Source of the DNA: Bacillota bacterium
GTDB taxonomy: Bacteria > Bacillota_I > Bacilli_A > ML615J-28 > CAG-313
Assembly (NCBI GenBank): GCA_963648435.1
Contig: CAVJDT010000003.1
Coordinates: forward strand, 14,582 to 78,581
Reading direction: 5' to 3'
DNA: 64,000 bases
Part shown: positions 2,161 to 19,214 of the stretch, piece by piece
Numbering within the stretch: the first letter of the stretch is position 1
Layout of the letters: each line of letters starts with the position of its first letter
Notes under the pieces: generated by a model
What the model was told of the DNA's origin: nothing
Seen by the model: the letters and a program-made list of their open reading frames with translations, nothing else
Databases searched by the model: none
Translations under genes and position numbers: made by a program

Positions 2161-2724
2161 TTATAAATTAACCGTAACGCTTACCCCATCATTACTAGTA
2201 TATGTAAAACCATTAATCCATAATTTATCATATGCCCCTGTCGCCGCATTCTTAACTCTACAATGAAGTATGACAACTCCTTTTGAAGATTTATAAGTTA
2301 TGTCATTTTCAATAATTTCAGCACATGTCGTAAATTTAACTGGTTGGTATTCGAAAGTACCATTTTCAAAACCTGAAACTGCGTTAAATGCATCTGCGAG
2401 AAACCTTCGGCAGAAAAGATCATAATTAATATCATCATCTTCATGCCCTGAAATGCTTGGAGTAGTAGCCATAACTGGATAAGATAGAAAGAAATAATCA
2501 CCATTATCCGAAATTAAAATTATATCATTTATCTCATTGATACGTTTACATAAACTATATTGAAGCAAGGTTACATCATCTATTTTACTTGCCTGTTTTA
2601 CTTTTTCGCTTAAACCTTTAAAACTTTTAAAACTAATAAGCGAAATAGATGAAATTACCAAAATTACAAGCAAACATTCAATTACACTAAAACCTTTTTC
2701 ATTTTGTCTATTTAACATTTCCAA
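2161..2724 (-). CDS. type IV pilin-like protein (minor pseudopilin); last gene of the pilus operon
   Basis: N-terminus NEKGFSVIECLLVILVISSISLI: class III prepilin signal (G|FxxxE) followed by a hydrophobic helix. Confidence 0.55.
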   Translation of the reverse strand: MEMLNRQNEKGFSVIECLLVILVISSISLISFKSFKGLSEKVKQASKIDDVTLLQYSLCKRINEINDIILISDNGDYFFLSYPVMATTPSISGHEDDDINYDLFCRRFLADAFNAVSGFENGTFEYQPVKFTTCAEIIENDITYKSSKGVVILHCRVKNAATGAYDKLWINGFTYTSNDGVSVTVNL

Positions 2725-3096
2725 CTACTTACTATAAGCATATTTGGCCGATTTACCATTATTGGAATAAGTTATTTCTTTATCATCGATTGTAAGAGTA
2801 GATGTAGCTGGTAATAAATTTCCTGATAATGTTTCAAATGCCTTTTTAACATCCTTTAAACCTTTAATATCCGTATAACTTACAATTGTAGTTCCATCAA
2901 CTTGTGAATTTTCCATAATTGCAACTTCAAATGTTTTTATAATTTCAGTTAATTGTTCTTCAACAACTACTTGTTTACTTTTATCAACATACTTTGTGTA
3001 ATTAGTAACTAATAAAGTTCCAAGTACCCCCATAATTGTAATAACAACTAATAATTCAACTAACGTAAAACCTTTTTCTTTCTTATTTGTAAACAT
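2725..3096 (-). CDS. type IV major pilin / ComGC-like pseudopilin
   Basis: Canonical KGFTLVELLVVITIMGVLG prepilin N-terminus. The start was moved to the internal Met (MFTNKKEKGF) because the track ORF extends into pilB. Confidence 0.75.
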   Translation of the reverse strand: MFTNKKEKGFTLVELLVVITIMGVLGTLLVTNYTKYVDKSKQVVVEEQLTEIIKTFEVAIMENSQVDGTTIVSYTDIKGLKDVKKAFETLSGNLLPATSTLTIDDKEITYSNNGKSAKYAYSK

Positions 3097-3109
3097 TTTA
3101 TATCCCTCC

Positions 3110-4588
3110 CTAAATTTCTTCGATTGAAGTGATTCCCTCAATCACTGCTTTTTTATGTTTTTCACTTAAAAGAATCATTTTATTTTTCTTAGCATATTGT
3201 TCTATTTTCTTTTCACTTGTTTCAGATAAAATCATTTCTTTAATTTTATCATCAACTTCTAAAACTTCACTAAGTAAAAGTCGACCCTTGTATCCAGTAT
3301 TGAAACAATATTGACACCCCCTTTTCTTGTATAATTTTACATCATCGTTTATTTCAAGCTTTTGCCTAATATCGAAAGTTAGTTTTCTTTCTTCCTTACA
3401 TTTTGGACAAAGTACTTCAACTAAACGTTGACATATAACCACCCTTAAAGCACTACTAACTAAATATTTGGGAATCCCCATATCTAATAACCTTGTAATT
3501 GCCCCAATACTTGATGTTGTATGAAGTGTTGAAATTACTAAATGACCACTAAGAGCCGCTCTCATCGCAATTGAGGCGGTTTCTTCGTCTCTAATTTCAC
3601 CAATCATAATAACATTAGGGTCTTGACGTAAAATACTCCGTAATGCACTCGCAAAGGTTAAACCTGCTTGTTGATTAACCTGAATTTGGTTAATACCATC
3701 AATGGTATATTCAACCGGATCTTCAATTGTCACAATATTACTATCTTGCTTGTTTAATTCATTTAAAAAAGTATACATAGTCGTTGTTTTTCCACATCCA
3801 GTTGGACCCGTAACAAGAATCATTCCTGACTTTTCACTTAATAATGATTTAATGATTTTTTCCTCATTATTTGTATAATTTAAATTATTAAAATTAGCAT
3901 ATAATCGCATTTTATCTAAGACTCTAATAACAATTTTTTCACCTAAAACTGTAGGAACTGCACTAACCCGGAGGTCATAATCTTTATCTTTGATTTGATA
4001 TTTTAGTTTACCATCTTGTGGTAACATCTTTTTAGTAATATCAAGAGATGCCATAATCTTGATTCTTGCTAAAACTTCTTCATATAAATCTTTTCTAATT
4101 TTATCCATCTCGGTTAATTTGCCATCAAGTCTAATTCTAATAACTGATTCACCAGCATGAGGTTCAATATGGATGTCACTAGCCCCAAGTACTATGGCTT
4201 TTTCAATCCAAATATTAACCATTTGAACCACCGGGGAAGTATCGATTTCTTGATATTCAATTTTAGGTTCTTCATTTAATACTTTGGGTTCTAATTTTTC
4301 ACTATATTTTGAATAATTATAACGTTCTTTTCCCATTAGTTTTAAAAGTTCATATTTTTTAACCCATTCATCTTTACTTAATAAATAAACATGAAATTCA
4401 CTTGTCGATGTGACAAACAATTCACTACATGTATAATAAGCAAATTCCTCATAAATTAAAGCAATCAACTGAAAACAATCTTCATATATTAAACAACCAT
4501 GTTCATACATCCAATCTAATGATACTTCATTCCAAATTTTATCTAAATTTAAGTGATAATTATAGGGAATTAGTTTTCCATTATTCAT
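3110..4588 (-). CDS. pilB: type IV pilus assembly ATPase (PilB/GspE family) with a ~120-aa N-terminal extension
   Basis: Walker A VTGPTGCGKTT; the Asp and His boxes are present. A C-terminal tetracysteine motif is present (CPKC..CQYC). At 492 aa it is longer than ComGA. Confidence 0.9.
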   Translation of the reverse strand: MNNGKLIPYNYHLNLDKIWNEVSLDWMYEHGCLIYEDCFQLIALIYEEFAYYTCSELFVTSTSEFHVYLLSKDEWVKKYELLKLMGKERYNYSKYSEKLEPKVLNEEPKIEYQEIDTSPVVQMVNIWIEKAIVLGASDIHIEPHAGESVIRIRLDGKLTEMDKIRKDLYEEVLARIKIMASLDITKKMLPQDGKLKYQIKDKDYDLRVSAVPTVLGEKIVIRVLDKMRLYANFNNLNYTNNEEKIIKSLLSEKSGMILVTGPTGCGKTTTMYTFLNELNKQDSNIVTIEDPVEYTIDGINQIQVNQQAGLTFASALRSILRQDPNVIMIGEIRDEETASIAMRAALSGHLVISTLHTTSSIGAITRLLDMGIPKYLVSSALRVVICQRLVEVLCPKCKEERKLTFDIRQKLEINDDVKLYKKRGCQYCFNTGYKGRLLLSEVLEVDDKIKEMILSETSEKKIEQYAKKNKMILLSEKHKKAVIEGITSIEEI

Positions 4589-4589
4589 T

Positions 4590-5816
4590 TTACACCTCCA
4601 TCATTTCATTCATAATTTTAAATAAAGGTAAGAATACTGCGATAACAACTAATGTCACAATTAAAGCCATTAAAACAATAATCGCAGGTTCAATAATTTT
4701 AGTTAATTTTGAGGTTTTATTATCAGCTTCATTATCATAATAATCAGCCGTACTTTTTAAAACATTATCTAAATTATTTGATTCTTCCCCAATTTTAATC
4801 ATTTCAATCATCATAATTGGAAAATATCCAACTATACTTAACGCACTAGATAAATTTTGACCTTGATATACCCTTGTATTTACAATTTCTAGTTTTTTTC
4901 TTAAATATTTATTATCAATTAAACTTATAGTTTTAGATAAGGCCGTAAATAATGGAATTCCACTACCATACATCATGGCAAGTGATCTTGTGAAATTAGA
5001 AGTAATTAACCACTTCTGAATTTTACCATAAATTAAGCTCTTCGTCTTTAAATAATCTATTGTATAATTCCCCTTAGCCCGGCTAATCATTTTAATAATT
5101 AAATATCCAAATAAAATTCCAAGGAGCACAAATATAGCATTTTTTTGAAAAAAACTAGATACTTTAAAAATGATTATTGTTATTTTAGGCATTTCTTTCA
5201 AATTTAAATTAACAAAAATTTCCTTAAATTTTGGTATTATAAAAAAGAACAAAACCCCAATAATTAATATCGTTATTCCAAGTAGTAGACAAGGATAAAT
5301 TAATGCACTTTTTACTTTTTGTTTTAACAAATGGTCTTTATAATAATAATTCTTTAAATACACTAACACATCAATTAATTTATTTGCCTCTTCTCCTGTT
5401 TTAATCATCATAATAAAAAGACTAGGAAAATACTGTTTAAAGGATTCTAAACTTGATGAAAACGACATTCCTGCTTGAAGGTTTCGAATTATTTTTTTGA
5501 TTATATTATTAAGCAAATAATGATGATAATTTTCATTAAAAGCTTTTAGTGCATTAACTAAAGATACTCCGGACTTTAACATAACCACTAAGTTTTCACA
5601 AAAATTAGAAATCACAATGCTTTTAATTTTAGTATTCATTAAATTTGTGTAATTTCTTACCTTCTTGCATCTAATAAGTTTAAGGTTTGAACTTGCTAAA
5701 AAGTCTTTAAGTTCTTCTTTACTACTCGCATATCCACTATTTTTAATTTTTTGATGTTGGGCATTTAAGACAACATAATTATATTTATTATCCATGCTTT
5801 CCTCTCCATTCTTCAA
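4590..5816 (-). CDS. pilC: type IV pilus inner-membrane platform protein (PilC/GspF family)
   Basis: Two GspF repeats and three TM segments; GSGIPLFTAL.. motif; abuts pilB with a 1-nt gap. Confidence 0.85.
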   Translation of the reverse strand: MKNGEESMDNKYNYVVLNAQHQKIKNSGYASSKEELKDFLASSNLKLIRCKKVRNYTNLMNTKIKSIVISNFCENLVVMLKSGVSLVNALKAFNENYHHYLLNNIIKKIIRNLQAGMSFSSSLESFKQYFPSLFIMMIKTGEEANKLIDVLVYLKNYYYKDHLLKQKVKSALIYPCLLLGITILIIGVLFFFIIPKFKEIFVNLNLKEMPKITIIIFKVSSFFQKNAIFVLLGILFGYLIIKMISRAKGNYTIDYLKTKSLIYGKIQKWLITSNFTRSLAMMYGSGIPLFTALSKTISLIDNKYLRKKLEIVNTRVYQGQNLSSALSIVGYFPIMMIEMIKIGEESNNLDNVLKSTADYYDNEADNKTSKLTKIIEPAIIVLMALIVTLVVIAVFLPLFKIMNEMMEV

Positions 5817-6195
5817 TTACAATTTTATCATCAACTACCGAACAATAAATCAGCAAACCATATCCCCGCTTGTACAAGACAGCTTGATTTAAAAGAATAC
5901 TAATACAATATTTATTTGAATTCTTATCAATAAGATTGCACCCGCCTCCAATATACGCATTAGCATTAAAAAAATATTCATGATAGGTACTTCGTTTCGG
6001 CTTTTTATCGTTTAGTTCTTCTAGCAATCTATGGCCAATATTTTCTATTAATGATCGGCAATAACAATCACTAAAATAAGCATTATCTAAATATTGAACA
6101 CTAACATTGCGAATGATTATCGTTGTAAGACTTGCTAGAATAACAATCATTAATAAAAGATTATAATAAGCTAAAAATCCTTTTTCTTTAGACAT
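5788..6195 (-). CDS. pilin-like protein (atypical: no Glu at +5)
   Basis: MSKEKGFLAYYNLLLMIVILASL: KG|F followed by a hydrophobic helix, but position +5 is Tyr. Overlaps neighbours on both sides. Confidence 0.5.
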   Translation of the reverse strand: MSKEKGFLAYYNLLLMIVILASLTTIIIRNVSVQYLDNAYFSDCYCRSLIENIGHRLLEELNDKKPKRSTYHEYFFNANAYIGGGCNLIDKNSNKYCISILLNQAVLYKRGYGLLIYCSVVDDKIVIEEWRGKHG

Positions 6196-6592
6196 AATGC
6201 CACCTCATTAATTCCAAATCTCGAAAATAGCGTAGTGATAAGTTTTTAAGCTTTTCTGGAAATTCAATTTTCAAAAGATATCGATGAATATTTTTTTCAA
6301 TTTCTTCACTATATGTAAGTTTAATTGCATATTCTTTGTTATCATAAGTCAAAATAACCTGATTATCTTGATAATTAAACATTTTCTTAATGTCATCTTC
6401 AAAATTATTCTTAGAATTATAAAATATTTCTGTTATTTTGACATAATTAATTGTCATATACTGTTGAATAGTATATTCCGTAATAGTTTGTTTACCCGCA
6501 AGGGATAAATACGTAATTCCAATAATTAAACTTAAAATTAACAACATCGACCAAGATGCTTCAATAATTGTAAATCCATTTTCCTTTTTCAT
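6188..6592 (-). CDS. type IV pilin-like protein (minor pilin)
   Basis: KENGFTIIEASWSMLLILSLIIG; the start was placed at the internal Met (MKKENGF) directly downstream of the previous stop. Confidence 0.6.
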   Translation of the reverse strand: MKKENGFTIIEASWSMLLILSLIIGITYLSLAGKQTITEYTIQQYMTINYVKITEIFYNSKNNFEDDIKKMFNYQDNQVILTYDNKEYAIKLTYSEEIEKNIHRYLLKIEFPEKLKNLSLRYFRDLELMRWHYV

Positions 6593-6593
6593 C

Positions 6594-7262
6594 TTATACC
6601 ACACTAGCCACACGACTATGGTGTAAACCATCAATCTTTAAAGATTTTTTATCAGAAAGCACCAATATTTTAGAAATAGTATAATCATTTTTATCAAGCA
6701 ATTGCATAATCTTAGTATCTACTTTATCATCATCAATAGTAATTATTTGTTTTAATCCAACTTCATCATAAAGCATTCCCACTAACATTTCATCTAAATA
6801 GATAAAAACTAAGTCATGACATTCATCTTTATATTTTTGTTCAATATATAAAGATAATAACATTCCTTGTTTTAATTTTTGATTAAACATTTTAAAAAAT
6901 TCTTTTACTTCCATATATTGTAATTTATTTAAACACCATATTTTTAAATAATTCCACTTTTTTTGCTTTACTTCTTTTTTAATTGTCACAATTTTGTCAA
7001 CATTGTAATTAAACTTTAATAAAATTTCATTTTTAATATTATTTTTCTTATTACTTTCACTCCTGATATAAGCTTGATTATAGAAGTGAAATAACCAAAT
7101 TATCTTGGTTTTATTTTGATAATAAATTAATAAATTACGCATAACCTCATCATATAATGAAATTAAATCATCATTTTCCAAACAACATTGATTATTTTGA
7201 CTAATTATCCTAACTTCCCACTTTACTCTATTTCTAATAACCACAACATAAACTTCACTCAT
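6594..7262 (-). CDS. hypothetical soluble protein encoded within the pilus operon
   Basis: 222-aa ORF tightly packed between pilin genes (8-nt overlap upstream). No motif I recognise and no TM segment. Confidence 0.4.
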   Translation of the reverse strand: MSEVYVVVIRNRVKWEVRIISQNNQCCLENDDLISLYDEVMRNLLIYYQNKTKIIWLFHFYNQAYIRSESNKKNNIKNEILLKFNYNVDKIVTIKKEVKQKKWNYLKIWCLNKLQYMEVKEFFKMFNQKLKQGMLLSLYIEQKYKDECHDLVFIYLDEMLVGMLYDEVGLKQIITIDDDKVDTKIMQLLDKNDYTISKILVLSDKKSLKIDGLHHSRVASVV

Positions 7263-7677
7263 ATATCCACCTCACAAATAAATTATCTTGACCATTAATC
7301 CCATCAAACATTAATACTAAATAATTATTTTCAATTTTACATGAAAAATTATAAATTAATTTAAATTCATATTCCGCACCAAAGTAATTTTCACAAATTG
7401 CATTATTTTTCACCCACAAAGCTAACTTATCATCAACATATACTTCATATTGTTCATTTCCATATTTAAGAACTTTATTGTCGGTTTTTATATTATCGAC
7501 AGTCATTAATAAATGATAGGCTTTTATCAGTTCATTATAATAAGCCCGATCTTTTTCATATTTACCATCATAAGTATTATAAAGGCTTATAACCTTAATC
7601 ACCATCGTGCTAGCTAAACTAATCATTAAGATTGCTAGTATGACCTCTAAAATAGTGATTCCTTTTTCTTTTTTCAT
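7255..7677 (-). CDS. type IV pilin-like protein; first gene of the pilus operon
   Basis: MKKEKGITILEVILAILMISLAS: prepilin signal G|ITILE. RBS GGTGATG lies 4 nt upstream of the ATG. Confidence 0.6.
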   Translation of the reverse strand: MKKEKGITILEVILAILMISLASTMVIKVISLYNTYDGKYEKDRAYYNELIKAYHLLMTVDNIKTDNKVLKYGNEQYEVYVDDKLALWVKNNAICENYFGAEYEFKLIYNFSCKIENNYLVLMFDGINGQDNLFVRWIYE

Positions 7678-7726
7678 TTAACATCACCAACCTTATATTA
7701 CGTTAATATTTTAATTTTTCCATTTT

Positions 7727-7873
7727 AAAAAACGTATTTCCGTTAGGAAAAAACGTATTTCCGTTAGGAAAAAACGTATTTCCGTTAGGAAAAAACGTAT
7801 TTCCGTTAGGAAAAAACGTATTTCCGTTAGGAAAAAACGTATTTCCGTTAGGAAAAAACGTATTTCCGTTAGG
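7727..7873. repeat. seven perfect tandem copies of a 21-bp unit, AAAAAACGTATTTCCGTTAGG
   Basis: Read directly from the sequence. Each unit contains AACG-N6-CGTT partial dyad symmetry. The array lies between the regulator gene stop and the pilus operon start, about 49 nt from the ATG at 7677. Confidence 0.95.
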
Positions 7874-7882
7874 AAATACGTT
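7853..7882 (-). terminator. rho-independent terminator of the LuxR-type gene, built from the last repeat unit
   Basis: Minus strand reads AACGTATTTCC-taac-GGAAATACGTT followed by TTTTTT (11-bp perfect stem). The 3' arm plus T-tract is the repeat unit itself. Confidence 0.7.
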
Positions 7883-9353
7883 ATTTATTAACATCACCAT
7901 ACTTTAAGATTAATTCAATTTTTGAATTAACCCCTAATTTTCGGTAAATATTTTTATAATGAAAATTAACTGAATCATACTTCATACTAAGTTCCCCCGC
8001 AATCTGCCTTAAAGTAAGACCTTCAATCAAAAAGTCAAATACAATCTTTTCTTTGGGGGTTAAAACCTCATTAGGGTCGATAATTACATCTTTGGTTTTT
8101 ATTTTATCAATGCTTTCAGGGGTACCACTTTTAATCTTTAAAACATTGATATATCCAAGAACATTGATAATAATTAAAATAACACCGATTAATGCATTCA
8201 TAATCATCATTGTAATCGCTATGGCTCTAGTATCAATATTCATTAAATATTTGCATAAAAAGACACTTGAAAAAGTAAAACAAATAGCACATAGTGATAC
8301 ATATAAAAGATTAAACTTTGATGCTTTATCATCTAGGACTTTAGCAATCAACATAAAAATAATGATATAACCTAAAGAACTTGAAAAGCCATATGCCAAA
8401 TCCGCGGCGTAACGCCAAAATGCTAAATTACTATCATAAGCAATATTGAATATTGTTAATTGATGAGCACCAAATAGTGACATAAAGTAAACAATAATAA
8501 GTAAAATTATAGCTTTTTTAGAATATAAGAAAGCAATAACCGTTACTAAACAACAAATTAAAAATCCAATATAATAGGTAGTAGAATAATATGATTTTGT
8601 TGCTTGAATGCCCCGCGTATGAACACTTAATTCAATGGCCCCCACAAAAGCTTGGTTCATGCAAACTACAAATAACATTCCAACTAACAATATCAATGAA
8701 TAATTTGGAACTTTTTCACTTTTATCGATTATTACAAAATAATCACTACAAAAAATAAATAATAAGTAAACAATTAAGGCTAAAAAAGAAGGCATATAAA
8801 TTCTTATAACTACTTCATTGGTAATTGCATTAAAATAAAAAGAATAACTAAAAAATAATAAGATAAGGATTAAACTAAATATTAATCGTTCACTCATTCC
8901 AAATGAATATAAAAATAAATTAACAATTAATCCAAAAATAAGGCCATAACCAAAGCCAAGTAACACTGAGCCTATAGTTAAACTTAAATTATTAAAGGAA
9001 TAATAACTAAATAAAATTCCCACAATTGCTAAGGGAGCAGAAATAAACTTAAAATATCTTAAAACTATTTGTTTAGAAACAACAACCACGATGATAATTG
9101 CAAACATTACCCCTAAAGCAATCCCAAATAATTGATAAATGTTTTCCGTAACATTTACATTTTCATAATCAAATAGTTTCATAAATCTAAAAATAAAATC
9201 AACTACTAGTAGTGATGAAAAGATTGATAAAAATATCGATTTTAAGGAAGGTTTAGTAAAATAAACCTTACTAGATTCCTTTTTACGATTAGCTAAAATT
9301 ACACTTAATTTCGAAAATACTTTCGTTATTTTCTTCTCTTTTTTAGTGTCCAT
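7881..9353 (-). CDS. polytopic membrane protein with a C-terminal LuxR/GerE-type HTH (membrane-embedded one-component regulator)
   Basis: About 12 predicted TM helices over the first ~400 aa. The C-terminus LTPKEKIVFDFLIEGLTLRQIAGELSMKYDSVNFHYKNIYRKLGVNSKIELI matches the LuxR HTH signature. Confidence 0.7.
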   Translation of the reverse strand: MDTKKEKKITKVFSKLSVILANRKKESSKVYFTKPSLKSIFLSIFSSLLVVDFIFRFMKLFDYENVNVTENIYQLFGIALGVMFAIIIVVVVSKQIVLRYFKFISAPLAIVGILFSYYSFNNLSLTIGSVLLGFGYGLIFGLIVNLFLYSFGMSERLIFSLILILLFFSYSFYFNAITNEVVIRIYMPSFLALIVYLLFIFCSDYFVIIDKSEKVPNYSLILLVGMLFVVCMNQAFVGAIELSVHTRGIQATKSYYSTTYYIGFLICCLVTVIAFLYSKKAIILLIIVYFMSLFGAHQLTIFNIAYDSNLAFWRYAADLAYGFSSSLGYIIIFMLIAKVLDDKASKFNLLYVSLCAICFTFSSVFLCKYLMNIDTRAIAITMMIMNALIGVILIIINVLGYINVLKIKSGTPESIDKIKTKDVIIDPNEVLTPKEKIVFDFLIEGLTLRQIAGELSMKYDSVNFHYKNIYRKLGVNSKIELILKYGDVNK

Positions 9354-9509
9354 AATCTCCCTCCAACTTATTTATTATACCATATTTTGACATATTATTA
9401 AAGCAAAACACAACCTAAATACTGAAGGACAAATATTGAACCATAAAATTATACAACTCTTCATTAATATTGCCTATTTACCCACTAATTTGCCTTAAAT
9501 ACGAAAATA

Positions 9510-9818
9510 TTACTCACTTATTAGTGATAACATCCTTTCATATCTACAAAAATATGGTAAACATTTAACTTTCATATTTTGTTCAAGTAAGTAAATATCC
9601 CCAAATAAACTAACGTTTAGTCTATTATTCTTTAAATACTTTTCAAACTCCTCTTTTTCCATCATTCCATAACCCGTTAGTTTTTCACTTACAATTCTTG
9701 AAGTTAATACTTCTGAGATTTGAGCTAAGTAATTAAATTTTGTTACAACTCGGATAATTACTTTTTTTCTTTTCTTAATTAAATCATTTAACTCTTCACA
9801 ATTAATTATTTTATGCAT
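9510..9818 (-). CDS. hypothetical small protein
   Basis: 102-aa ORF with a GGAGGT RBS 5 nt upstream of the ATG; divergent from tmcAL; no motif I can name. Confidence 0.4.
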   Translation of the reverse strand: MHKIINCEELNDLIKKRKKVIIRVVTKFNYLAQISEVLTSRIVSEKLTGYGMMEKEEFEKYLKNNRLNVSLFGDIYLLEQNMKVKCLPYFCRYERMLSLISE

Positions 9819-12127: not shown

Positions 12128-12499
12128 TTATTCTTCATGATGATGACAACAACAATGATGTTCTTCACATTCACATTCATCATCACATTCACATTCGCCA
12201 TCACATTCTTCATCCATTTGGGCTTCATAGTCAGCAACAGCATCTTCAATTAATGACCATTCTTCGTCAGTTTCAATTTCACTTAATTCACCACTGCCAT
12301 CTTCACCTTCTGTGAATGAAGCCGCCATTAATTGAATTTGTTCAGAATCATCATCATTTAGTGCTTCAATGGGATAGAAAACAACATATTTCTTGTTAAA
12401 TTCTTCTGATTCTAATGTAAATAAAATTTGACATAATTTTTCATTGCCTTCAGCATCAATTACCGTTAATTGACCATCAGTTGGTTTGATTTCACTCAT
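12128..12499 (-). CDS. DUF1292 (YrzB-like) protein with an extra Cys/His/acidic C-terminal tail
   Basis: Position downstream of ruvX and the core EGNEKLCQILFTLESEEFNKKYVVFYPIE resemble YrzB. The tail is DEECDGECECDDECECEEHHCCCHHHEE. Confidence 0.6.
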   Translation of the reverse strand: MSEIKPTDGQLTVIDAEGNEKLCQILFTLESEEFNKKYVVFYPIEALNDDDSEQIQLMAASFTEGEDGSGELSEIETDEEWSLIEDAVADYEAQMDEECDGECECDDECECEEHHCCCHHHEE

Positions 12500-15878: not shown

Positions 15879-18800
15879 TTATGCTGCTTGTTCTTCTTTA
15901 GAAACTGCGGCAGCTTTTTCTTTTTCAGCAGCTTTTTGTTTAGCTAGTTTTTCTTTTTCAAGAGCTTTTTGTTTAGCTAACTTTTCTTTTTCTTTTTCAG
16001 CAGCTTTTTGTTTAGCTAGTTTTTCTTTTTCAAGAGCTTTTTGTTTAGCTAACTTTTCTTTTTCTTTTTCAGCAGCTTTTTGTTTAGCTAGTTTTTCTTT
16101 TTCAAGAGCTTTTTGTTTAGCTAACTTTTCTTTTTCTTTTTCAGCAGCTTTTTGTTTAGCTAGTTTTTCTTTTTCAAGAGCTTTTTGTTTAGCTAACTTT
16201 TCTTTTTCTTTTTCAGCAGCTTTTTGTTTTGCAAGTTTTTCTTTTTCAAGAGCTAACGCGGCATCTTTACGAGCTTTTTCTTCAGCTGCGGCTTGTAATT
16301 TAGCTTCTTTTTCAGCTTGAGCTGCTGCCATTTCAGCTTGTTTACGAGCTTTTTCTTCTTCAACTGCTTTTTGTTTTTCAGCTTTAATTGCATCTTTTTC
16401 AGCTTGTTTACGAGCTTTTTCTTCTTCAATTAATCTTTGCTTTTCAGCATCTAATTCTTCATAGTATGCAATTGAATTCTTAATAATGTTCTTAACTAGT
16501 TTTTCATCTAATTCGCCTTTATTAACTAATCTAAACCATTGTTCGCCCTTAGGACTAGTAGCTTTAACAATTGTTCCAGGATATTCAACAATTAGAGGGA
16601 AAGCTTTTTCTTGATTACTACAGAAAGTAATACGATAATCATTATTAGTTGACATAGTAATTAAGAATAATCTCTTACCAAAGAAATATCTACTAATGTT
16701 GCCTTTTGCATTTGGAACAACTTTAATTTCTTTATTAGGAATAGTTGATGCATATTTAACAACTTTTTCATATGAAGGTTTAAATACTTTTTTCTTCTTT
16801 AATTTTTCACGAGCTTCTTTTTCTTTTTCTTTAGCTATTCTTTCAGCTTCTCTTTCAGCTTCAGCTTTTCTAAGTGAATCAAGTTCTTCTAATTCTTTAG
16901 CAACTCTTGCATCTTCTGCTGCTTTTGCTTCTTCTGCCACTTTTGCTTCTTCTGCCGCTTTTGCTTCTTCTGCTAGTCTTGCTTCTTCTGCCGCTTTTGC
17001 AATTTCAGCTTGTCTTGCTTCTTCAGCTAGTCTTGCTTCTTCTGCCGCTTTTGCTTCTTCTTCAAGTCTTGCAAGTTCAGCTTGATGGGCAGCTTCTACT
17101 GCTTTTGCTTCTTCTTCAAGTCTTGCAAGTTCAGCCGCATGATCAGCACGACGTTTTTCCTCAGCTTCTCTTAATGTTGCAAGTTCTTCTTTTTCAGCTT
17201 GACGTTCAGCTTCTACTACTTTTGCCTCTTCTTCAAGTCTTGCTACTTCTGCTTGATGAGTTTCTTCAGTAGTTTTTGCAACTTCTTCAAGTCTTGCTAC
17301 TTCTGCTTGATGAGCTTCTTTTTCAGCCTTTGCAACTTCTTCAAGTCTTGCAATTTCAGCTTGATGAGTTTCTTCAGTAGTTTTTGCAACTTCTTCAAGT
17401 CTTGCTACTTCTGCTTGATGAGCTTCTTTTTCAGCCTTTGCAACTTCTTCAAGTCTTGCAATTTCAGCTTGATGAGTTTCTTCAGTAGTTTTTGCAACTT
17501 CTTCAAGTCTTGCTACTTCTGCTTGATGAGCTTCTTTTTCAGCCTTTGCAACTTCTTCAAGTCTTGCAATTTCAGCTTGATGAGTTTCTTCAGTAGTTTT
17601 TGCAACTTCTTCAAGTCTTGCTACTTCTGCTTGATGATTAGCTTCTGCAGCTTTAGCTTCTTCAAATAGTCTTGTTACTTCTGCTTGATGATTAGCTTCT
17701 GCAGCTTTTGCTTCTTCAGATAGTCTTGCACATTCTGCTTGATGAGCTTCTTTTTCAGCTTTAGCTTCTTCAGATAATCTTGCTACTTCTGCTTGATGAT
17801 TAGCTTCTGCAGCTTTTGCTTCTTCCTCAAGTCTTGCGCATTCTGCTTGATGAACTTCTTTTTCAGTTTTAGCTTCTTCAGATAGTCTTGCAAGTTCAAC
17901 TTCATAAGCTTTTTTAGCTTCACGTAATTTTTCAAGTTCAATGTGTTCTGCAATACGCTCAGCTTCTGCTCTTCTTAAAGCATCAAGTTCAGCACGGTCT
18001 GCACGACGTTCAGCTTCAGAAGTTCTTAAATATTCAAGTTCAGCATGTTCAACGCGATGTTTTTCTTCAGCTTTTCTTAAAGCATCAAGTTCAGCTTTAC
18101 TTTCTGGGCTCATTACTTCAACTACTTTTTCAATTACTTCAGGAACATATTCAGCTTTTTCTTTTGCAAAAGCAATTTTTTCCGCATTCAATGTTGCTTT
18201 TTCATTTTCAAGTGTATTTCTTTCTTCAGTAACTTTATTTTGTTCACTAACATATTCTAATTGCATTTGAGCAAGTAAAACTTGTAAATGAGCTAATTTA
18301 TCTTGTAGTGCAACTACTCTAGCATCTAATACCGGAGGTTTTTCTTGTTCTTCAGCGATACTCTTCTTTAATTCTTCGATTTCTATTTCAAGTGCTGTTT
18401 TCATGCTTTCAATCACCTCAATTTCATGTCTTAAAGTTTCTAATTCATCGTTTTCTAAACCACATAATCCTAATTGGTCTCTTGTATAAGTAAATAATTG
18501 TTCAAGAATATGTTGTTCAGCTTTATCATATTCTTTCTTATGAGCTTCAATAAAATCTTTAATTAAACGTGTTCTTGATTCAACTGAATATTCAGGATTT
18601 AATTTATATAATTTAACCATTGATAATACATGTAAACCAGTAATTAAACCACCAAATACAATTGGAATAATCAAGAAAAATACCGATGAATTAAAGGTTG
18701 TGCTTCCTTTAACTAAAGCAACATATTTATTTCCCATATCATTCATATAGAATAATAATCCTATGAATACGAGTGCAACAACTGTATCAATTAGCATCAT

Positions 18801-19214
18801 TTCATTTTTACTAAATGTTACCACAAACTTATATAATTGATGAGATACAACTACAATACTAACAAATAATAATGAGCAAACCATCACATTAATAATCCAA
18901 TGGGTTGTCGTATAAGGATCAGTTGATCTCACAAGCATCATTAAACCATCAAATAACAACGCAGCCATTGTAGTAAAAATCGGCATATAACAAGCTACTG
19001 TTGTATAACGTAATGATGGACGATAATTACGATATTTAGTTGATAAATTTATTAAAAATAAAACTAATGAAATAATTGGTAAAACTATTGCTTTTAAAAT
19101 TATTTCAACACGAGGTACTCCACTTAATCCCCAAGGAATGCAAATTGCAAAAGCAATAGCAACGGAAATCATACTATTTATAAACATTACTTTCTTTTCT
19201 CTACTATTTAACAT
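15879..19214 (-). CDS. large membrane-anchored coiled-coil repeat protein (N-terminal polytopic domain, two tandem-repeat arrays, central globular domain)
   Basis: Residues 1-300 form ~8 TM helices. Residues ~440-740 are 18-aa ARLEEVAK(T/A)..HQAE(V/I) repeats. Residues ~770-880 are a non-repetitive domain (..ISRYFFGKRLFLITMSTNNDYRITFCSNQ..). Residues ~990-1100 are 24-aa EKEKEKLAKQKALEKEKLAKQKAA repeats. Confidence 0.6.
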   Translation of the reverse strand: MLNSREKKVMFINSMISVAIAFAICIPWGLSGVPRVEIILKAIVLPIISLVLFLINLSTKYRNYRPSLRYTTVACYMPIFTTMAALLFDGLMMLVRSTDPYTTTHWIINVMVCSLLFVSIVVVSHQLYKFVVTFSKNEMMLIDTVVALVFIGLLFYMNDMGNKYVALVKGSTTFNSSVFFLIIPIVFGGLITGLHVLSMVKLYKLNPEYSVESRTRLIKDFIEAHKKEYDKAEQHILEQLFTYTRDQLGLCGLENDELETLRHEIEVIESMKTALEIEIEELKKSIAEEQEKPPVLDARVVALQDKLAHLQVLLAQMQLEYVSEQNKVTEERNTLENEKATLNAEKIAFAKEKAEYVPEVIEKVVEVMSPESKAELDALRKAEEKHRVEHAELEYLRTSEAERRADRAELDALRRAEAERIAEHIELEKLREAKKAYEVELARLSEEAKTEKEVHQAECARLEEEAKAAEANHQAEVARLSEEAKAEKEAHQAECARLSEEAKAAEANHQAEVTRLFEEAKAAEANHQAEVARLEEVAKTTEETHQAEIARLEEVAKAEKEAHQAEVARLEEVAKTTEETHQAEIARLEEVAKAEKEAHQAEVARLEEVAKTTEETHQAEIARLEEVAKAEKEAHQAEVARLEEVAKTTEETHQAEVARLEEEAKVVEAERQAEKEELATLREAEEKRRADHAAELARLEEEAKAVEAAHQAELARLEEEAKAAEEARLAEEARQAEIAKAAEEARLAEEAKAAEEAKVAEEAKAAEDARVAKELEELDSLRKAEAEREAERIAKEKEKEAREKLKKKKVFKPSYEKVVKYASTIPNKEIKVVPNAKGNISRYFFGKRLFLITMSTNNDYRITFCSNQEKAFPLIVEYPGTIVKATSPKGEQWFRLVNKGELDEKLVKNIIKNSIAYYEELDAEKQRLIEEEKARKQAEKDAIKAEKQKAVEEEKARKQAEMAAAQAEKEAKLQAAAEEKARKDAALALEKEKLAKQKAAEKEKEKLAKQKALEKEKLAKQKAAEKEKEKLAKQKALEKEKLAKQKAAEKEKEKLAKQKALEKEKLAKQKAAEKEKEKLAKQKALEKEKLAKQKAAEKEKAAAVSKEEQAA
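15935..16230. repeat. about four tandem copies of a 72-bp intragenic repeat (encodes the C-terminal EKEKLAKQKA array)
   Basis: Unit AGCAGCTTTTTGTTTAGCTAGTTTTTCTTTTTCAAGAGCTTTTTGTTTAGCTAACTTTTCTTTTTCTTTTTC repeats near-perfectly. Confidence 0.85.
16990..17900. repeat. intragenic tandem array of 54/108-bp units (encodes the ARLEE..HQAE coiled-coil repeats)
   Basis: TTCTTCAAGTCTTGC(T/A)A(C/T)TTC(T/A)GCTTGATGAG(C/T)TTCTT..TTTGCAAC repeats ~3.5 times with near-perfect identity between ~17280 and 17640. More degenerate copies flank it. Confidence 0.8.

Follow-up and report, generated by a model that had tools for sequence, protein, structure and literature searches.

A tandem repeat separates the gene of a polytopic-membrane LuxR-type regulator from a Com/type IV-like pilus operon on the minus strand of a 64,000-nucleotide stretch of a Bacillota bacterium contig (CAVJDT010000003.1), which is referred to here as the window. 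The repeat consists of seven perfect units of 21 bp, each of which corresponds to the loop, the 3' arm and the T-tract of the intrinsic terminator of the regulator gene, and the array is wedged between this full terminator and an intact, conserved promoter-like motif upstream of the first pilin gene. Of two other contigs of the same species, one contains a single copy and one at least two, and all relatives possess a single terminator; the array is therefore a recent, species-specific and copy-number-polymorphic terminator expansion. With about even confidence we propose that it is a young, unstable variable-number tandem repeat which arose by slippage in the terminator, and which may act as a graded insulator or as an upstream modulator of the pilus promoter.

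Anatomy of the array and its relation to the terminator

The existence of the array in the sequence is confirmed. On the plus strand, the 21-mer AAAAAACGTATTTCCGTTAGG matches exactly seven times at 7727..7873, and Tandem Repeats Finder reports one array in this place (7727..7876; period 21, 7.1 copies, 100% matches, no indels). None out of 100 dinucleotide-preserving shuffles contained seven matches of the 21-mer, and no near-matches with up to three mismatches were found elsewhere in the 64-kb window. These results bear out the seven perfect copies that had been claimed in an interpretation made from the DNA letters without database searches (the sequence-only reading). The extent which it had given for the repeat is right only in part: all seven copies lie between the stop of the LuxR gene and the first pilin gene, but the repeats are confined to 7727..7873, and the remaining 49 bp (7726..7678) are unique sequence that separates the array from the pilin ATG and carries the conserved promoter-like motif. 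In minus-strand order, the region is composed of the last codons of the LuxR gene, its TAA stop codon (7883..7881), the hairpin, the T's, six further CCTAACGGAAATACGTTTTTT units, the unique 49 bp, and the pilin ATG at 7677. We also considered a dispersed repeat or a miniature inverted-repeat transposable element; this candidate was rejected, as no other copies of the unit or of its arm occur in the 64 kb. The elements of the intergenic region are listed below.

7857..7882, minus strand: full terminator hairpin AACGTATTTCC-TAAC-GGAAATACGTT (terminator scan, RNA fold)
7727..7873, minus strand: seven perfect 21-bp units CCTAACGGAAATACGTTTTTT, the plus-strand 21-mer given above (Tandem Repeats Finder, exact matches)
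7873..7853, minus strand: unit 1, which is part of the full terminator
Down to 7727, minus strand: units 2-7, the expansion
7832..7861, minus strand: one of six hairpins that form where two units meet, ACGU-uu-UUUCC-UAAC-GGAAA-u-ACGU with U5 behind it (RNA fold); the structure recurs every 21 nt to 7727
7695..7726, minus strand: promoter-like motif AAAATGGAA-N14-ACGTAATAT (conservation)
7722..7717 and 7700..7695, minus strand: -35-like TGGAAA and -10-like TAATAT within this motif, with a 16-nt spacer
7683..7688, minus strand: Shine-Dalgarno sequence GGTGAT of the first pilin gene

The hairpin of the full terminator, for which the terminator scan gives 11 pairs and a 4-nt loop followed by T6, shares its first two bases with the end of the LuxR stop codon (TAA); its predicted fold energy amounts to -13.4 to -15.3 kcal/mol (z = -6.2). 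As is characteristic of intrinsic terminators, a stable stem-loop and a U-tract stand just after the stop codon, and the hairpin is kept at the orthologous site. The derivation of the unit from the loop, 3' arm and T-tract of this terminator had been recognized in the sequence-only reading; in the one-copy state, which is found in a same-species contig and in all relatives, the site consists of the plain terminator. Calling the units half-terminators captures their origin from the 3' half of the structure, but the term is incomplete: each junction between units rebuilds a bulged 9-bp hairpin with a U5 tract (-6.7 kcal/mol, z = -1.7), which forms because ACGU is self-complementary and because the U-tract mimics the U-rich 5' arm. 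Furthermore, the 5' arm of the terminator can pair with any later 3' arm (-11.5 to -9.7 kcal/mol). As single-stranded DNA, the region is predicted to fold into one hairpin per unit (-41.4 kcal/mol, z = -6.3), a type of structure by which slippage is promoted.

Slippage is the most likely mechanism of origin. During replication, the distal 21 bp of the LuxR-gene terminator (loop, 3' arm and T-tract) would have been re-copied, and the first duplication would need only a TTT microhomology between the end of the 5' arm (...ATTT/CC) and the T-tract (...TTT/AAAA). Once present, perfect units with one single-stranded hairpin each would favour later expansion and contraction.

Copy number within the species and in related lineages

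Exact-protein look-ups brought up two more contigs of this species, each from a different read set. The contig L001 (read set SRR19415681; 99.6-99.9% identity over 3.3 kb) has one copy, with the order stop, hairpin, TTTTTT, AAAATGG. It contains six 31-mers that span from a base specific to the 5' arm to the unique downstream sequence; because such 31-mers are impossible from a multi-copy molecule, L001 represents a genuine one-copy molecule. The contig L002 (read set SRR13434600; 99.97% identity over 2.9 kb) ends with ...ACGTTTTTTCCTAAC inside the second unit, which means at least two copies. Its last six 31-mers are specific to the junction of two units, and its break point lies where a de Bruijn assembler would stop at a real repeat. 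Both contigs were presumably built with k = 31, which we take to be the setting of the Logan resource, and the k-mer arguments assume this value. At least two alleles exist, one with a single copy and one with more than one copy; the seven copies of the window constitute a third state, if its assembly is exact. The comparison of strains that the sequence-only reading had proposed was answered in its favour: the copy number varies across near-identical genomes (1, at least 2, and 7). Two hallmarks of a contingency locus are present, i.e. perfect tandem repeats that are prone to slippage, and a copy number that differs between close strains, here in three samples. Further alleles did not emerge when 241 million metagenome records were scanned for exact matches to the hairpin and T-tract specific to this species, as there was no match. 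Nor did another contig that reaches the array turn up in exact-protein look-ups with two neighbouring proteins, of 102 aa and 222 aa, or with variants from their clusters.

Eight related lineages could be read through this site (52-80% LuxR identity), and each of them has one terminator. Relatives with 80%, 64%, 60%, 55%, 54% and 52% identity to the LuxR-type protein, several of them found in more than one sample, have a single hairpin and T-tract after the stop codon. In the four relatives that were folded, the stems differ in sequence and are similar in energy (-12.0 to -13.3 kcal/mol, followed by T6-T8). All close relatives that came up are metagenome-assembled genomes, and the window may stem from one as well; the nearest representative is the uncultured human-gut 'Mollicutes' assembly UMGS75, with 80% LuxR identity. 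The G+C content of the window is 29.6%. Judged from these orthologous loci, one copy is the ancestral state.

Neither the rest of the window nor 158 kb of related loci contain a comparable intergenic array. The other arrays in these sequences (period of at least 10, at least 2.5 copies) are all imperfect, and such imperfect arrays in the window and in the contigs of the 80% relative lie within an orthologous large repeat protein. In the window, an open reading frame (ORF) of 1111 aa (15879..19214, minus strand) combines a hydrophobic region at the N-terminus with long, coiled-coil-like repeats rich in Glu, Ala and Lys. Its near-perfect coding tandem repeats (4.7 copies of 72 bp with 99% match; 6 copies of 108 bp with 90%), with similar repeats in the 80% relative, make it a second candidate for copy-number variation.

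Two further observations concern the orthologous spacer in other lineages. In the 54% lineage, the contig L009 contains a tandem duplication at 5024..5232 (109 bp x 1.9, 86% match) that covers the whole module of terminator, promoter and ribosome-binding site (RBS), and that is unrelated to the 21-bp array; the LuxR-pilin spacer appears to be duplication-prone in more than one lineage. Two contigs of the 64% relative with identical LuxR protein, L004 (4505..4512) and L005 (4505..4513), differ by an indel of 1 nt in a T/A run just upstream of AAAATGGAA, i.e. by a small-scale length variation at the same promoter-proximal position.

The promoter-like motif and possible effects of the array

The conserved fragment of the window, AAAATGGAA...CGTAATAT, lies outside the array. 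Relatives share the layout AAAATGGAA-N14-WCGTAWTAT, followed by 5-8 nt, GGTGAT and the start codon; in all of them, GGTGAT is located 4-8 nt before the start codon. The blocks AAAATGGAA and CGTA-TAT are invariant and have a fixed spacing in eight sequences of 52-100% LuxR identity, and they are the sole invariant blocks in an otherwise drifting spacer, in which the distance from the hairpin to AAAATGGAA is 0, 7, 8, 9, about 30 or about 40 bp, depending on the lineage. A motif scan of the 241 million metagenome records returned three matches, all at the orthologous site, in the 80% and 60% relatives, and all with one copy. From this conservation we infer that the motif is the promoter of the pilus operon; a reading as the site of an alternative sigma factor, of sigma-H or ComX type, was considered as well. 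Within the window, the motif at 0 mismatches is unique; as a signal of a wider regulon it was rejected, as the one match with two mismatches elsewhere in the window is at chance level. In all relatives (window 7695..7688; L003-L054), the -10-like hexamer is located just 5-8 nt upstream of the GGTGAT RBS, and therefore the pilus mRNA is predicted to start at or beside the Shine-Dalgarno sequence, with an unusually short leader; in the window, the predicted start is near 7688, about 7 nt downstream of TAATAT.

This intact, invariant motif at 7726..7683, between the array and the ATG, contradicts the suggestion that the repeats sit where the pilus promoter should be. The promoter scan lists no promoter inside the array, and the unit is without an acceptable hexamer pair. 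The nearest edge of the array is 4 bp upstream of the -35-like hexamer, and, counted from the predicted start, the repeats reach from about -39 to about -185. The one-copy and seven-copy alleles do not differ between the promoter and about -60, and for this reason the array cannot alter the spacing of -35 and -10 or the promoter-proximal UP region. The unit length does equal two helical turns, as had been stated in the same proposal. It is this very property that speaks against a switch: 21 bp keep the helical phase, so an on/off phasing switch, as with repeats of 1-7 bp, is not expected. If the array has an effect at all, it would be graded and rheostat-like, as the period amounts to two turns and the core promoter remains unaltered.

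How could such an effect come about? In the explanation that we propose, the six extra units would move the site of LuxR termination about 126 bp away from the promoter and would supply six weaker modules of hairpin and U-tract in series; LuxR transcripts would end at the first U-tract (7858..7853), with minor ends every 21 nt in multi-copy alleles. The expected result would be a tighter insulation of the promoter against read-through and against occlusion by terminating polymerases. At the same time, the six added in-phase T6 tracts would lead to strongly curved upstream DNA, which could alter the binding of RNA polymerase or of nucleoid proteins, with UP-like contacts as a possibility. From about -39 to about -170, one T6 tract is present per 21 bp, and these tracts are in phase with the T6A4 tract close to the promoter. 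The arrangement agrees with that of phased A/T-tracts, in which runs of 4-6 bp or more follow the helical repeat upstream of -35. A dinucleotide wedge model predicts a curvature of about 30 degrees per unit, and a ratio of end-to-end distance to contour length of 0.475 for the seven-copy array, compared with a minimum of 0.631 among 659 window segments of the same length. In its most far-reaching form, the explanation would hold that slippage has turned a terminator into a copy-number-tunable module of insulator and curved DNA, which heritably and reversibly sets both the uncoupling of the operon from the regulator gene and the promoter activity; we regard this form as rather unlikely, though not negligible. 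Equally tentative is the idea of a contingency locus built from units that are functional fragments of a terminator and that keep the helical phase.

Several points weigh against an influence of the array on the pilus operon. The species was found in just three samples; of the allelic states, only two (1 and >1) are certain, and the exact count of seven rests on one assembly. The motif scores 8/12 against the sigma-70 consensus and is not listed by the promoter scan, so that its assignment as promoter rests on conservation. All alleles agree up to about -60, so that there could be no effect at all. The hairpins at the junctions are weak, and 12 out of 200 shuffles fold equally well. Arrays of shuffled 21-bp units are also somewhat curved in the wedge model (mean end-to-end/contour of 0.78), whose parameters are rough.

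A strong rival is a neutral interpretation, according to which the array is a recent slippage product at a hotspot of hairpin and T-tract, has no effect on the LuxR gene or the pilus, and drifts or collapses in copy number. We consider this a serious possibility, although we lean somewhat away from it. No allele shows a change in the terminator or between the promoter and about -60, only one species carries the expansion, which all relatives lack, and a one-copy allele coexists in the same species; the unrelated 109-bp duplication at the same site in L009 points to a region prone to duplication rather than to a selected design. On the other hand, perfect intergenic arrays of 7 x 21 bp are otherwise absent from the window and from the 158 kb of related loci, and a position just upstream of the promoter of a surface-structure operon is typical of contingency loci (PMC4081817, PMC12721329); neither of the two is proof of function. 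That the repeat count, or even the whole array, was made by the assembler is very improbable. Admittedly, the close relatives are all metagenome-assembled, and a perfect repeat of 147 bp is hard for short reads, so the number seven may be inexact; however, the independently assembled L002 has 31-mers of the unit-unit junction and breaks exactly there, and L001 has 31-mers specific to the one-copy allele, from which at least two real alleles follow.

More specific is the hypothesis that the array serves as an operator, in which each AACG-N6-CGTT dyad binds a dimer of the LuxR-type regulator and the cooperative occupancy of seven in-phase sites controls the pilus promoter. Each unit does contain one such dyad, seven in total and all on the same helical face, and the conserved synteny of regulator and operon indicates that the regulator probably acts on this intergenic region. 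Yet the dyad, which had been thought to suit a LuxR-type helix-turn-helix (HTH), was not found in any of the eight orthologous intergenic regions, despite an HTH recognition segment, MKYDSVNFHYKNIYRKL, that is identical in the examined relatives of 52-80% and differs by at most two residues further out. The dyad has arms of just 4 bp and is present here only because the loop of this species reads TAAC and is followed by G. A lux-box-like operator would be conserved along with its regulator and would keep a fixed position to the promoter; the dyad does neither, and an operator is not expected to tolerate a hairpin-to-promoter spacing that drifts from 0 to about 40 bp. In addition, the conserved blocks AAAATGGAA and CGTAWTAT lie outside the array. 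All in all, we judge the operator hypothesis to be improbable; if the regulator binds the spacer at all, the invariant AAAATGGAA block would, as a matter of speculation, be a better candidate than the dyad. Least probable of all, to the point that we practically discard it, is a coding repeat or an iteron-type origin of replication. The unit length is a multiple of 3 and an ORF of 65 aa with the repeat (PNGNTFF)n spans the array (7703..7900, minus strand), but this (PNGNTFF)7 frame has no RBS, is interrupted by a stop codon in the 80% relative, would shrink to 23 aa in the one-copy allele, and has no true homologs among 5.8 billion proteins, where only unrelated repeat proteins were matched. 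Direct repeats of 21 bp in helical phase resemble iterons, and their length falls into the usual range of 17-22 bp; against an origin speak the neighbours, which are LuxR-type and pilus genes with no adjacent Rep-type gene, and the absence of the array in relatives. An Rfam search of the array returned only sub-threshold, microRNA-like noise.

Flanking genes, known systems and significance

The genes on either side of the array had been assigned correctly from the letters, i.e. a membrane LuxR-type regulator upstream and a pilus operon downstream:

9374..9401, minus strand: promoter-like site of the LuxR gene with an extended -10 (TTAATA-16-TG-TATAAT; promoter scan, 10/12 matches plus TG)
7881..9353, minus strand: gene of the polytopic-membrane LuxR/GerE-type regulator, 490 aa (PF00196, hydrophobic segments)
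7255..7677, minus strand: first gene of the pilus operon, minor-pilin-like, 140 aa (prepilin-type N-terminus)
2161..7262, minus strand: rest of the Com/type IV-like pilus operon (profile matches)

The regulator possesses a C-terminal GerE/LuxR HTH domain (PF00196 at residues 430-483, E = 1.3e-12) and about 11-12 hydrophobic segments. Its family is small, with 30 proteins, and in most lineages, down to about 30% identity, the gene is located directly upstream of the pilus operon. The extended -10 promoter AATATGGTATAAT, or a variant with one to two base changes, is present upstream of all orthologs examined, and this conservation suggests strong constitutive transcription into the terminator and the array. 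For the 140-aa product of the first pilus gene, the N_methyl motif (E = 0.007) and a weak ComGE match (E = 5.5e-5) are both below the curated cut-offs. The subsequent genes encode proteins of 222, 148 and 135 aa, T2SSF (408 aa; E = 5.8e-55), the T2SSE ATPase (492 aa; E = 2.3e-127), the major pilin (138 aa) and a pilin-like protein (187 aa). An N_methyl match with E = 3.1e-9 was obtained in the operon, several of its proteins have prepilin-type N-termini, and there are similarities to ComGA (PilB-like T2SSE), ComGB (PilC-like T2SSF) and ComGC.

Some minor features of the surroundings were recorded as well. A direct repeat of 12 bp, TGGTGATGTTAA, at 7887..7898 and 7678..7689 brackets the intergenic region. 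We rejected it as a target-site duplication: the repeat is made up of the YGD(VN) codons of the LuxR gene and of the GGTGAT pilin RBS, and the 80% relative shares only TGGTGAT. It is probably a coincidence, and might serve as a substrate for deletions. At 9497..9543 (minus strand), a sub-threshold Rfam match to the Streptococcus small RNA SpF19 (31 bits, below the gathering score of 60; E = 0.004) spans the start of a 102-aa ORF and the sequence just downstream, toward the LuxR gene; it is probably noise. Further away, at 12128..12499 (minus strand), a small acidic protein, whose ortholog in related loci is annotated as DUF1292, ends with a Cys/His/Glu-rich tail, CDGECECDDECECEEHHCCCHHHEE, which may bind metal; an 18-bp coding repeat lies in the region of this protein at 12165..12208.

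Among the known arrangements, tandem intrinsic terminators such as rrnB T1-T2 serve as insulators and consist of distinct, stable sequences. The 21-bp array likewise places serial modules of hairpin and U-tract before a downstream promoter, but its modules do not differ from one another, are weaker, stem from slippage and vary in number. In Neisseria meningitidis, TAAA repeats upstream of the -35 of nadA modulate the promoter by their copy number without changing the core promoter. With a unit of 4 bp, the rotational phase and the NadR/IHF geometry of nadA change with each unit, whereas the 21-bp array is phase-neutral and terminator-derived.

Promoter-proximal repeats can tune promoters through DNA structure and UP-like contacts (PMC4081817). 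The sabA gene of Helicobacter pylori provides such a case: an intergenic T-tract that varies by slipped-strand mispairing immediately precedes the -35 of this surface-structure gene and acts through local DNA shape or UP-like contacts (PMC4081817), in similarity to what may apply to the T-tracts described here. The output of sabA is graded and not on/off (PMC4081817), and the same would be expected of the 21-bp array. The two differ in that the mononucleotide run of sabA shifts the axial alignment of promoter and UP-like elements (PMC4081817), whereas the 21-bp units keep the rotational phase and change only distance, curvature and the number of tracts. A multi-base intergenic repeat with polymorphic copy number is also found upstream of the adhesin genes hmw1A/hmw2A of Haemophilus influenzae, in the form of (ATCTTTC)n (PMC12721329). 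The hmw repeats form RNA and DNA hairpins that have been implicated in expression and in repeat instability; in contrast to the 21-bp array, they are transcribed as part of the 5' untranslated region and processed by RNase III (PMC12721329). In the window, the promoter is downstream of the array, so only transcripts reading through from the LuxR gene would contain it. Finally, Mycoplasma hyopneumoniae has, in a low-GC genome of Mollicutes-like type, tandem and palindromic repeats upstream of transcription units with strain-variable copy number, for which a regulatory role was suggested from correlations (PMC5179023). These repeats are heterogeneous, are not described as terminator-derived, and show no sequence relationship to the 21-bp array (PMC5179023). 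We place the array among the intergenic variable-number repeats next to surface-structure operons; from the sabA and hmw repeats it differs in unit length, phase neutrality and terminator origin.

If the array is neutral, it merely illustrates slippage at a hairpin with a T-tract. In either case it is a ready marker for strain typing, and two further results of use come out of the comparison: the sharply conserved motif that we take for the pilus-operon promoter, and the conserved pairing of this operon with a polytopic-membrane LuxR-type regulator. The host belongs to an uncultured, reduced-genome gut lineage (named 'Mollicutes' or Bacilli in related metagenome records). If it is true that the copy number tunes the operon, the array would be a clear case of repeat-mediated heritable variation in a pilus for DNA uptake or adhesion, and it would mean that an intrinsic terminator can seed a contingency locus.

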